A stretch of 64,000 nucleotides of DNA from Chiloscyllium plagiosum (taxonomy: Eukaryota), in contig NC_057751.1 of assembly GCF_004010195.1 (NCBI RefSeq), positions 10,535,738 to 10,599,737 of the forward strand. Direction: 5' to 3'. The position numbers were made by a program, and so were the translations under genes. This document shows, piece after piece, positions 61,801-63,297 of the stretch. The notes below the pieces were generated by a model. That model saw only the letters and a list, made by a program, of their open reading frames with translations. It was not told the origin of the DNA and made no database searches. Each line of letters begins with the position of its first letter. Within the stretch, counting starts at the first letter, position 1.

Positions 61801-63297
61801 TTGATTTGTTGGATGAACTCACCTGATTCATTCACGTCCTTCAGGGCAGGAAACTGCAGTCCTTACCCAGTCTGGCCAACCTGTGACACGAGAGCCACAG
61901 CAACACGTTTGACTGGCTTCTGGGAAATGAGGGATGGACAATAAATGCTGGTCTTGCCAGCTTTGCCCACATCCTGTAAATGAATTGAAAAGAAAAGAAA
62001 ACTGAATGAGCTGTATTCTTCAAATCCTAAATCTGTTTGAAGAATATTAAACTGAAAACTCTTCCCCTTGGGGAGAATCTTGCATGAGCTCCATGCCTTC
62101 TGAATTGCCACAGAGAAAGCGCCAACTTAGCTTTCAATTCAACCTTTGCTTTCCAGCTGTTTCTCAGGTCACATTGGCAATTTTTGGAATCTTGCAATAC
62201 AATCATCAGGGAATCGCTTTACCCCCTTGCAGAATATTCTCCAGCCCATTCAGGTCATAGATGATAAGAACACAAACCCCGACAAGAGGCTTTTCCAAGC
62301 ATACGGATCATTGCAAACTGGAGAGTTTTAACTGAGAAGGGATGAGTCCAAGTTGGGTTGAAGTTTTAAAAATAAGCTTCCTAATTTTAAATCCACCTGT
62401 TGAGGCTTTGATTGAAGCAGGAAGTGAAACTGAAATGAACTGAATATCCTGCTGATCCGTTCCAAGGAAGCGGGTTGGACAGTCAATCGAATAAGGAGGC
62501 TGAATGTGAAATTGTCATTTGAGCTTTTCAACTTGATCAGTTTGTCAAGAGGTGAGTTCCATTCTATCTGCCTTGTGGGCCACTTTCCCTTCCTGTGGAA
62601 TCCTGCCCCAAAACTTTCCCATGAGAACTCTGCTGATCGCTTCGCTAGTCTTCCTGTCGCAGAAGCTGGGCAATTATTTTTCATTTGCTTTCCTGAAACT
62701 ACTTTGAGATTAAAAATTAGTTGTAAAAGTGACAAGACTTTATAATGTTTACAATCGTGGCTAAAACTAGGTCATAGAAAATGTTCCTTTTAAGCAGGTT
62801 GAGGAGAGATTTTGTTATTGTACTTGGTAAATGAGTGCTTCCTTGCATCATGAATATATCAACTTGTAAGAAATTTGGTCATGCAGTCCTGAGTCAAAGA
62901 GCTGAGATTATTTCTGTGTGAAGAGTAGATATTTATTTACATGGTTATTTTCCAAATGTTTTAGGGTATGATCTTGTATGATGACATCACAGACAACAGG
63001 GACCAAAAGTGGAAGACCAAGGAGCCGGAGATATTTGATCATTTTGCAAAGTGTTATTTAATCTTCAAACTGCAGAAGGATATGGTAAATGTTGTTGACC
63101 TGAACACGTCAGGTGATCATGACTCTTTGGCTGTGAATGAGGCAAAGGAGATGGGACTTGGTGGCCAAGCAGGAACATATGAGCATGCAAGTTGTGCTGC
63201 AGTGAAGGATAAAGACTGGAAGGCTATCAGAGTGGATCTGGTCATTGCACCCTTCAGCCAGTATGCCTATGCCTTATTAGGATGGACAGGTTCTAGG
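40648..63297 (+). CDS. POLM: DNA polymerase mu (Pol X family, BRCT + 8-kDa + palm), coding exons 1-9; 3' exons lie beyond the window
   Basis: Nine GT-AG exons (206, 169, 99, 171, 72, 121, 133, 103, 333 nt) splice in frame to 469 aa. Motifs: BRCT ([15 protein letters not shown]...[10 protein letters not shown]...WFTES), [46 protein letters not shown] (catalytic DxD), [13 protein letters not shown]. Pol mu-type segments ([53 protein letters not shown]) favour POLM over DNTT. Confidence 0.88.
40905..41170 (-). mobile_element. Decayed HE1-type SINE in POLM intron
   Basis: cacatctttggactg..ggaggaaacccacgtagacac...actccacacag...gaggcaacagtg. Confidence 0.8.
41322..41342. repeat. Poly-C tract
   Basis: ~21 C; another poly-C at 63965-63979. 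Confidence 0.9.
41930..42230 (-). mobile_element. Very old CR1 ORF1 (esterase) remnant
   Basis: [36 protein letters not shown] parallels the ORF at 434-829. Confidence 0.55.
44008..45725. mobile_element. Nested CR1s: minus-strand 3' fragment (44008-44558, resuming 45553-45725) with a plus-strand CR1 (44560-45552) inside
   Basis: Plus: [34 protein letters not shown]; minus host continues from tccagaaga to ggcctca. Confidence 0.85.
45730..45925 (+). mobile_element. Decayed tRNA-derived SINE (different family)
   Basis: agttcagttggcttgacgg (A box-like), ggctcaattccc (B box-like), cctcacctgaggc. Confidence 0.5.
46848..47020 (+). mobile_element. HE1-type SINE, 5' half
   Basis: ggtggcccagtggttagcactgctacctcacag, ggttcaattcc, tgtggagtttgcacattctcccc. 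Confidence 0.88.
47636..47804 (+). CDS. POLM: POLM coding exon 2 (BRCT)
   Basis: Acceptor tttctctttgcag; (S)[16 protein letters not shown]...[24 protein letters not shown]; donor CAG|GTATTT. Confidence 0.93.
48235..49025 (+). mobile_element. Two CR1 3' fragments
   Basis: gctgaggggtgacc..ataaaatca twice; tccagaactagagggcataggttt; tail ctgtttctgtgctgtacatctct. Confidence 0.8.
49550..49900 (+). mobile_element. SINE with L2-type tail
   Basis: gtcactgggctcgtaatccag...ggttcaaatcccaccac (B box)...ccttacctggtctg...cagacccacagc. Confidence 0.75.
50469..51419 (-). mobile_element. Solo-LTR-like element inserted in an old CR1 (50020-52250), itself interrupted by a young CR1 3' end
   Basis: TG...CA termini (tgatatgg / tcgtcaca); flanks agat/cgat; AATAAA on the minus strand; similar to 61204-61760. 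Confidence 0.6.
50978..51272 (+). mobile_element. Young CR1 3' end
   Basis: [33 protein letters not shown]; near-identical to 28565-28860. Confidence 0.9.
53198..53296 (+). CDS. POLM: POLM coding exon 3
   Basis: Acceptor gattttag; [33 protein letters not shown]; donor ACG|GTAATA. Confidence 0.92.
53410..53512 (-). mobile_element. Short Penelope-derived element fragment
   Basis: aaaaacagaagttgctgga..aactca.caggtctggca.catctgtgg; minus strand has CTGAAGA..GAAA remnant; related copy at 25585-25695. Confidence 0.55.
53866..54036 (+). CDS. POLM: POLM coding exon 4 (8-kDa domain)
   Basis: [57 protein letters not shown]; 171 nt; AG/GT boundaries. Confidence 0.94.
54187..54258 (+). CDS. POLM: POLM coding exon 5
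   Basis: [24 protein letters not shown]; 72 nt; donor AAG|GTGAGT. Confidence 0.94.
55064..55184 (+). CDS. POLM: POLM coding exon 6 (HhH)
   Basis: [40 protein letters not shown](G); 121 nt; donor G|GTAATG. Confidence 0.94.
56598..56795 (-). mobile_element. HE1-type SINE 3' half
   Basis: atagaatccctacagtgtggaagca...gagcatcccacc. Confidence 0.7.
57082..57214 (+). CDS. POLM: POLM coding exon 7
   Basis: (G)[43 protein letters not shown](R); 133 nt; acceptor ttttgttttacag. Confidence 0.94.
57366..57800 (-). mobile_element. CR1 3' fragment with (GACTCTAT)n tail
   Basis: [24 protein letters not shown]; near-identical to 18570-18845. Confidence 0.9.
58077..58283 (+). mobile_element. Palindromic Penelope-derived element, hammerhead core mutated (CTGATAA)
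   Basis: Same family as 39826-40026; perfect 12-bp TSD ctgaacaggtta at 58065-58076 and 58284-58295. Confidence 0.88.
59340..59442 (+). CDS. POLM: POLM coding exon 8 (catalytic GHDVD)
   Basis: (R)[34 protein letters not shown]; 103 nt; donor CAG|GTATGA. Confidence 0.94.
59470..59602 (+). mobile_element. Short Penelope-derived element (second family)
   Basis: gaa-GGGC-ttat-GCCC-GAAA-cg-TC-gattc (hammerhead 3' half; CTGA core lost), then ttctcctgttcc..gctgcctggcc..ttttccagcaacac. Confidence 0.8.
61204..61760 (-). mobile_element. Solo-LTR-like element splitting a SINE (61140-61203 / 61761-61990)
   Basis: TG...CA termini (tgttatgg / ttgtcaca); similarity to 50469-51419 (gtagcct.gaccctaa, aagcaaaaca..tttatt); the SINE resumes after it. 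Confidence 0.62.
62965..63297 (+). CDS. POLM: POLM coding exon 9 (Loop 1, Loop 2, third catalytic Asp, GWTGS)
   Basis: GMILYDD...[13 protein letters not shown]...[27 protein letters not shown]; 333 nt; donor AGG|GTAAGT. Confidence 0.93.

Follow-up and report, generated by a model that had tools for sequence, protein, structure and literature searches.

In human DNA polymerase mu (Pol mu), Arg387 has been described as a brake on primer translocation. The R387K mutant favours translocation (PMC3592450) and gains terminal transferase activity by as much as 100-fold; F389L and F389G/R387K abolish this activity, and Asn457 has a role in templated synapsis (PMC4081086). In terminal deoxynucleotidyl transferase (TdT), the Loop1 clamp comprises Phe385, Phe401 and His475, and Pol mu is without the Loop1 Phe (PMC4081086). 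The TdT mutants K403R and K403A are impaired, H400A is mildly affected, Q402A behaves as wild type and D473A alone leads to templated behaviour (PMC2724280); with K403R the template-independent activity is lost (PMC2724280, PMC2938210). TdT, Pol beta and Pol lambda all have Lys at the site homologous to Arg387 (PMC2938210), and the SD1 motif was described as strictly conserved within each family, with Arg387 in 'ERS' in Pol mu (PMC2724280). The subject of this study is the POLM gene of the shark Chiloscyllium plagiosum, which starts within a stretch of 64,000 nucleotides of contig NC_057751.1 (positions 10,535,738 to 10,599,737 of the forward strand; RefSeq assembly GCF_004010195.1), called the window below, and which encodes a Pol mu with Lys at residue 387.

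We found that this gene is an ordinary, annotated POLM that carries a real, lineage-fixed natural equivalent of the human R387K substitution; the correspondence to R387K had been recognized in the preliminary description of the window. On balance, we lean towards shark Pol mu being a template-preferring end-joining polymerase, with a brake that is likely eased by Lys387, and towards a separate TdT as the likely main source of non-templated (N) nucleotides. The proposed mechanism starts from the POLM orthology of the gene, its intact catalytic residues with His330 and Lys387, and its Pol mu-type thumb motif (SSH). From mutants of the human and mouse enzymes, it is known that Arg387 holds on to the primer and slows the backward slide that follows each untemplated addition, and that Lys loosens this grip. 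Compared with a version of itself reverted from Lys to Arg, the shark enzyme would be expected to add somewhat more bases at 3ʹ overhangs, either untemplated or slipped. The template-blocking clamp of TdT probably requires both the Loop1 Phe385 and the DNH thumb loop; since both are missing in the shark protein, the template strand could still enter. For the shark itself, the effect of Lys387 is likely modest.

Gene model and orthology of the shark POLM

The POLM exons were found by tblastn, using the Hemiscyllium protein P0003 as a query against the window and neighbouring genome stretches. All introns (10/10) had GT-AG ends, the spliced frame was open over 525 aa (tblastn and splice-site check), and the product of the 11 exons was identical at 525/525 residues to P0476, annotated as POLM isoform X3 of Chiloscyllium plagiosum. 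The POLM gene of this shark is thus intact, spliced and already annotated. Its product contains a BRCT domain and the Pol X core, with the HDVD/RVD catalytic triad and the equivalent of human His329. Positions 63034-63060 (+) translate to FDHFAKCYL, with the His codon at 63040-42 and the Lys codon AAG at 63049-51, just where the preliminary description had placed them, and the Tyr codon at 63055-57; the segment lies in exon 9 (62965-63297, AG/GT ends). The splice joint between exons 8 and 9 was present in contigs of 4/4 public runs compared, and the only other letters in exon 9 of these contigs were at 63155 and 63244, with none within 63034-63060. Both observations indicate that FDHFAKCYL is not an assembly error. 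The shark residue numbers F385, K387 and Y389 coincide with the human Pol mu numbering, and DHFAKCY aligned onto DHFQKCF of the solved mouse TdT. The features are listed below.

40648..64000, +: POLM gene, coding exons 1-9 in the window (tblastn, splice sites, identity to P0476)
40648..40853, +: exon 1, with ATG, a basic N-terminal stretch and the start of BRCT (tblastn/splice check; PF00533 is listed for relatives)
47636..47804, +: exon 2, BRCT (tblastn/splice check)
53198..53296, +: exon 3 (tblastn/splice check; runs X1 and X15 show its joint with exon 4)
53866..54036, +: exon 4, 8-kDa domain (tblastn/splice check, run contigs)
54187..54258, +: exon 5 (tblastn/splice check, run contigs)
55064..55184, +: exon 6, fingers with the GVGVKTA helix-hairpin-helix (tblastn/splice check, run contigs)
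57082..57214, +: exon 7, with GGFRR at its end (tblastn/splice check, run contigs)
59340..59442, +: exon 8, GHDVD with His330 (59356-58, equal to human His329) and catalytic Asp331 and Asp333 (spliced translation)
62965..63297, +: exon 9, with Loop1, SD1, a 48-residue insert, RVD (catalytic Asp449, 63235-37) and GWTGS (translation, run contigs)
62977..63036, +: Loop1, 20 residues, starting at Tyr and ending just before Asp383 (alignment)
63037..63057, +: SD1 motif DHFAKCY, Asp383-Tyr389 (translation)
63049..63051, +: Lys387 (AAG), counterpart of human Pol mu R387K and TdT Lys403 (alignment)
Past the window end, +: exons 10 and 11, which would be at 65010-65093 and 67040-67126 (tblastn/splice check)

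The insert of exon 9 (window 63073-63216) runs from SD1 to the WKAIRVD strand; it has 44-48 residues in elasmobranch POLM and 17 in the mammalian rows, and its region was of low confidence in the predicted model. The same exon holds an in-frame inner acceptor at 63070-63076 (CTGCAG, next base 63076), the use of which would remove the first 37 codons of exon 9, that is Loop1 and SD1. Annotated isoforms of Mustelus and Stegostoma (P0122 and P0124) are without exactly this Loop1-SD1 part. Use of the acceptor at 63076 was not seen in contigs of 4/4 runs, and such contigs drop rare forms. In the ~2% and ~6% of two single-cell runs that were read, no read fell on exon 9, too shallow a depth to bear on expression.

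The gene had been regarded as Pol mu-like, and the phylogeny agreed. The tree comprised 52 rows (LG+G4, quick search), from which Loop1, SD1, the insert after it and SD2 had been cut, so that the trait could not itself place the gene. The shark protein was nested with elasmobranch POLM (SH-aLRT support of 99) and chimaera POLM (99), TdT formed a separate clade (100), and a single clade of elasmobranch POLM and TdT was rejected by the approximately unbiased (AU) test (p=0.025). The NCBI name of all close relatives is POLM. A search of the genome with exon 9 returned two places, exon 9 itself and a DNTT exon on contig C22, which reads MDHFQKCFLIL and has a TdT-type Loop1; DNTT is known here from that one exon. 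We also scored 13 diagnostic columns, in which 12 TdTs differ from 15 bony-vertebrate Pol mus; for these defining rows themselves, the scores are circular. The shark POLM had 3 TdT-like, 7 Pol mu-like and 3 other states; in the same order, the counts were 2/7/4 for chimaera, 4/8/1 for coelacanth, 3/8/2 for lamprey, 3/7/3 for hagfish and 3/6/4 for amphioxus, and TdTs had 10-13 TdT-like states.

That the gene is a second DNTT, or that its exon 9 was converted by DNTT sequence, has been largely refuted and appears highly improbable. It would fit the better score that exon 9 alone obtains against solved TdT (E ~1e-13) than against solved Pol mu (E ~2e-8), and the L-I pair after SD1 that is common to carpet sharks and TdT, but it is contradicted by the tree, the AU test and the POLM names. 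A conversion is further opposed by the codons: in the C-terminal part of exon 9, 12/20 same-residue codons differed synonymously between POLM and the DNTT of this genome, and the Lys codon is AAG in the former and AAA in the latter. Together with the TdT-like states, which are not clustered in exon 9, these synonymous differences ruled out a recent conversion, although a very old conversion tract from DNTT may be present in this exon. The fold search ranked Pol mu and TdT structures together and did not separate them. When the genome was searched with the Pfam palm domain, Pol lambda exons were the only hits, which gives a lower bound rather than a gene census; these exons (L011, L012) share contig C22 (G000) with the DNTT exon, ~27 Mb apart.

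Functional residues and their distribution

Compared with human Pol mu, the shark protein has Lys at Arg387, Tyr at Phe389, Ala at Glu386 and Ser at Asn457. With vertebrate POLM it shares the domains and catalytic residues given above, the Pol mu-type thumb and the division into 11 exons; a NUDCD3-like neighbouring gene may be a further common feature. The brake substitution is the same as in the human R387K mutant (Andrade et al. 2009, via PMC4081086, PMC3592450, PMC2938210), from which the shark protein differs at effect-modulating sites, namely 386, 389, Loop1 and SD2; the elephant POLM, with DAFEKSF, is a closer natural copy. DHF-x-K-C at SD1, the counterpart of Lys403, ~50% identity and the fold are shared with TdT. 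Unlike TdT, the shark protein has neither DNH nor the Loop1 Phe385, its Loop1 is shorter by two residues (20 vs 22 in 12/12 TdTs, by alignment), only 3/13 columns are TdT-like, and it belongs to a separate clade. Pol lambda and Pol beta share Lys at the homologous site (PMC2938210), but have a short Loop1 and need a template; the Pol lambda of this genome likewise reads QKKYLGV, with Lys at that site. Thus, Lys alone does not make a terminal transferase.

At SD2, the shark POLM has SSH (exon 10); the TdT DNH motif (Asp473, Asn474) is absent, and DN was found in 12/12 TdT rows. Asp371 (63001-03) stands at the position of the TdT anchor Phe385, where shark TdTs have Phe, Leu or Met. The AlphaFold confidence of Loop1 was low both in the Hemiscyllium Pol mu P0003 (block mean 48) and in the nurse-shark TdT P0092 (50) over the same 66 rows. 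Taken with the published mutants, His330, F385 and Lys387 of shark Pol mu would favour untemplated addition, and three features argue that a template could still bind, namely the thumb loop of the SSH type, the Loop1 anchor occupied by Asp, and the shorter Loop1.

To our survey we admitted 178 rows, one per species, drawn from top-120 or top-150 relative lists and individual look-ups; the survey excludes additional isoforms and any row that is unnamed or named TdT. Lungfish is represented by P0073 (DNTT-like in NCBI), which was counted as POLM because it has the ERC and NSH motifs and which is absent from the 52-row tree. Lys387 was present in 15/15 elasmobranchs (the basking shark likewise), in the coelacanth (1/1), in 3/13 mammals (African elephant, tammar wallaby and brushtail possum; the Asian elephant likewise) and in 6/7 protostome homologues. 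Outside sharks and rays, only 1/137 non-mammalian vertebrate rows with the residue had Lys, so DHFxK is not the general state of non-mammalian POLM, in line with the preliminary description. Arg387 was found in chimaera, lungfish, caecilian, 2/2 jawless fish, 5/5 non-teleost ray-fins, 72/73 teleosts, 23/25 reptiles, 9/13 mammals and 4/4 invertebrate deuterostomes. Elsewhere, residue 387 was Thr (26/28 frog rows, the other two being gaps), Ser (2/2 salamanders) or Gln or His (2/25 reptiles). SD2 was SSH, NSH or TSH in 14/14 elasmobranch rows that contain it and SSH in 68/73 teleost rows; DNH was found in no POLM row.

The His, Lys and Tyr residues of the shark motif are real and lineage-conserved, but they are not unique to this shark, and of the three only Lys387 is informative. 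His had been taken as a mark of TdT, which we rejected. It appears to be an ancestral state, being present in 4/4 invertebrate deuterostomes, 6/7 protostomes, chimaera, coelacanth, lungfish, salamanders, caecilian and 7/25 reptiles, as well as in 11/15 elasmobranchs (Ser in 2, Arg in 2), and absent from teleosts (0/73) and mammals (0/13). The same site is Asn in 34/99 listed rows ranking below the shark POLMs, nearly all of them TdT-named, and the effect of TdT H400A is mild, as mentioned above. Nor is Tyr at residue 389, which had been pointed out as a departure from a conserved Phe, a special feature: it occurs in 25/26 frogs and 2/15 elasmobranchs, the remaining elasmobranchs having Phe (9/15) or Leu (4/15). 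In four rays, Lys387 co-occurs with Leu389.

On the accepted species tree, we infer that Arg387 and His are ancestral in vertebrate Pol mu and that Lys was gained several times. One gain, probably by a single base change, would have occurred in the shark-ray ancestor, and others, separately, in the coelacanth, in elephants, in diprotodont marsupials and on the TdT stem. Such repeated gains would make residue 387 a tunable site and not a switch. The 52-row tree gives three Lys/Arg changes, but this number hinges on its unsettled basal node and does not enter the inference. The 'ERS' triplet with Arg387 is missing in the shark (AKC), and it is not universal in POLM either (ETC in frogs, EKS in elephant, EKC in coelacanth); the motif is therefore weakened as a definition, and the orthology of the gene is unaffected. 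In the literature searched we found no report of Lys387 in shark, elephant or coelacanth Pol mu and no assay of a shark Pol mu, on which PMC2435157 and PMC12362244 likewise contained nothing; most subscription journals were outside this search, and the alignment figures or supplements of PMC4081086 and PMC2724280 may show such rows.

Several rows deserve mention on their own. Frog POLM (P0219, P0382-P0408) has D-[G/S]-H-E-T-x-[Y/F] in 26/26 rows with the motif, without a basic residue 387 and without Phe385, which human Pol mu requires for terminal transferase activity, and amphibian Pol mu may have lost terminal transferase activity. In elephant POLM (P0456, P0465, P0468; DAFEKSF), R387K exists naturally within a mammalian protein, which may make for a cleaner test than the shark offers. 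Wallaby and possum POLM (P0449, P0458) have Lys and that of Dromiciops has Arg. DHFAKCF combined with DNH was found in the TdT-type proteins P0235 (named killifish TdT), P0262 and P0288, which indicates that real TdTs tolerate Ala in place of Gln402.

Lys387 and antigen-receptor junctions

T-cell-receptor (TCR) joints have been described in 10 species, including Chiloscyllium punctatum (PMC10322711), the Pol mu of which (P0001) has the same motif as that of Chiloscyllium plagiosum. For shark, sturgeon, zebrafish, lungfish and elephant, we could read the state of Pol mu directly; bichir was assigned that of its relative Erpetoichthys, and the mouse state is from PMC2724280. TRA joints without insertion made up 45.7% in shark, 47.5-48.1% in sturgeon, 38.8% in bichir, 29.4% in lungfish, 79-93% in teleosts, 17.7% in mouse and 7.4% in elephant (PMC10322711). 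Mean insertions in shark were 2.50 (TRA VJ), 1.29 (TRB VD) and 0.96 (TRB DJ), ranking 4th, 7th and 8th of 10; the corresponding means were 2.7, 1.9 and 1.7 in mouse and 6.5, 6.0 and 5.0 in elephant, 1st of 10 (PMC10322711), where the elephant data come from the blood of one species and incomplete germline annotation could inflate the counts. In these data, the bamboo-shark TCR joints have no N excess over those of Arg-bearing fishes, which speaks against shark T cells having a strong second source of N nucleotides.

The preliminary description had proposed the enzyme as a second source of N nucleotides, and this part of it fared poorly. In its fuller form, elasmobranch Pol mu would be a natural high-terminal-transferase enzyme adding N nucleotides beside TdT, chiefly at immunoglobulin (Ig) light-chain joints; we consider this unlikely. 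Lys387 does match the gain-of-function R387K exactly, with His330 and F385 intact, and Ser replaces the template-contacting Asn (N457) of human NSH (PMC4081086), but SSH is also present in 68/73 Arg-bearing teleosts. Mouse Pol mu is active at kappa V-J joints (PMC2638008), shark light-chain joints have N additions (PMC5192425), and the elephant combines Lys with the most insertions (PMC10322711). On the other hand, the genome has an intact-looking DNTT exon 9, a review credits TdT for shark light-chain N (PMC5192425), the other TdT determinants (DNH and the Loop1 Phe) are absent, Lys is insufficient in Pol beta as well as Pol lambda (PMC2938210), and the shark TCR joints are not N-rich (PMC10322711). 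A broader form of the same idea, which also strikes us as improbable, would make residue 387 an evolutionary dial of junctional diversity. In sharks and rays, and independently in the coelacanth, in elephants and in diprotodont marsupials, the Arg brake would have been lifted, with Pol mu adding N beside TdT as a result. If true, it would explain both the N-rich shark light-chain joints and the unusually long elephant TCR insertions.

A more serious alternative, although still a doubtful one in our view, is that Lys387 is functionally near-neutral, residue 387 drifting among Arg, Lys, Thr, Ser, Gln and His, and that shark Pol mu resembles any other non-mammalian Pol mu. The lability of the site (Thr in 26/26 frogs with the residue, Ser in the salamanders, Gln or His in two reptiles, Lys or Gln in 4/13 mammals) is consistent with this, as are the Lys of 6/7 protostome homologues, in a lineage without V(D)J recombination, the pairing of Lys with Leu389 in the four rays, and the bamboo-shark joints without N excess (PMC10322711). 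N addition has left little trace in the germline-joined light chains of the nurse shark (PMC2193156), a weak point in favour, since those cells may or may not express Pol mu. Drift is harder to reconcile with the fixation of Lys in 15/15 elasmobranch rows and of Arg in 72/73 teleost rows, which indicates constraint within clades, and with substitutions in both directions altering activity in two different enzymes (PMC2724280, PMC4081086, PMC2938210).

Several points also weigh against our preferred reading of a template-preferring Pol mu with an eased brake. That Lys387 eases the brake is extrapolated from the human and mouse enzymes, which are ~45-50% identical to the shark protein. The effect of Lys387 may be cancelled by residue 389 (Tyr389 here, Leu in 4/15 elasmobranchs), because F389L and F389G/R387K abolish terminal transferase activity in the human enzyme (PMC4081086). 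The basal vertebrate POLM node, including the monophyly of all vertebrate POLM, is not settled by the 52-row tree. The top insertion counts of the Lys-bearing elephant hint at the bolder view of Pol mu as an N source (n=1; PMC10322711), N additions are common in shark Ig light-chain joints, even if credited to TdT (PMC5192425), and the TCR data cover T cells and do not test B cells. Given the light-chain and elephant data, Pol mu may contribute to N additions in vivo.

Should Lys387 indeed ease the brake, then a gain-of-function mutation made in the laboratory has arisen several times in nature, and the species with Lys387 offer ready-made enzymes for asking how far a single residue can move Pol mu in the direction of TdT and whether Pol mu contributes at all to the diversity of antigen receptors. 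Were Lys387 neutral, the survey still corrects the published strict conservation of SD1 in Pol mu (PMC2724280), as the motif varies widely across vertebrates.

Genomic surroundings

POLM is flanked upstream by a sulfatase exon on the minus strand and downstream by a gene with NudC-N and CS domains. The sulfatase exon (window 12898-13206, -; PF00884, E 6e-10, CCPSR motif) is transcribed away from POLM, and the NudC-N and CS-domain exons (L004:199-828 and L006:1842-2165, +) start ~6.5 kb past the POLM stop codon. We take the upstream gene to be GNS-like and the downstream gene to be NUDCD3-like; in human, NUDCD3 presumably also lies close to POLM (7p13). Two runs of N (window 19323-19844 and 27787-28535) are located upstream of POLM. 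Introns 7 and 8 of POLM contain high-copy repeats, and fragments of LINE-type retrotransposons, with reverse transcriptase/endonuclease matches, were found at window 3-3247 (-), 11663-11905 (+), 19847-20652 (-) and 38558-38933 (-).

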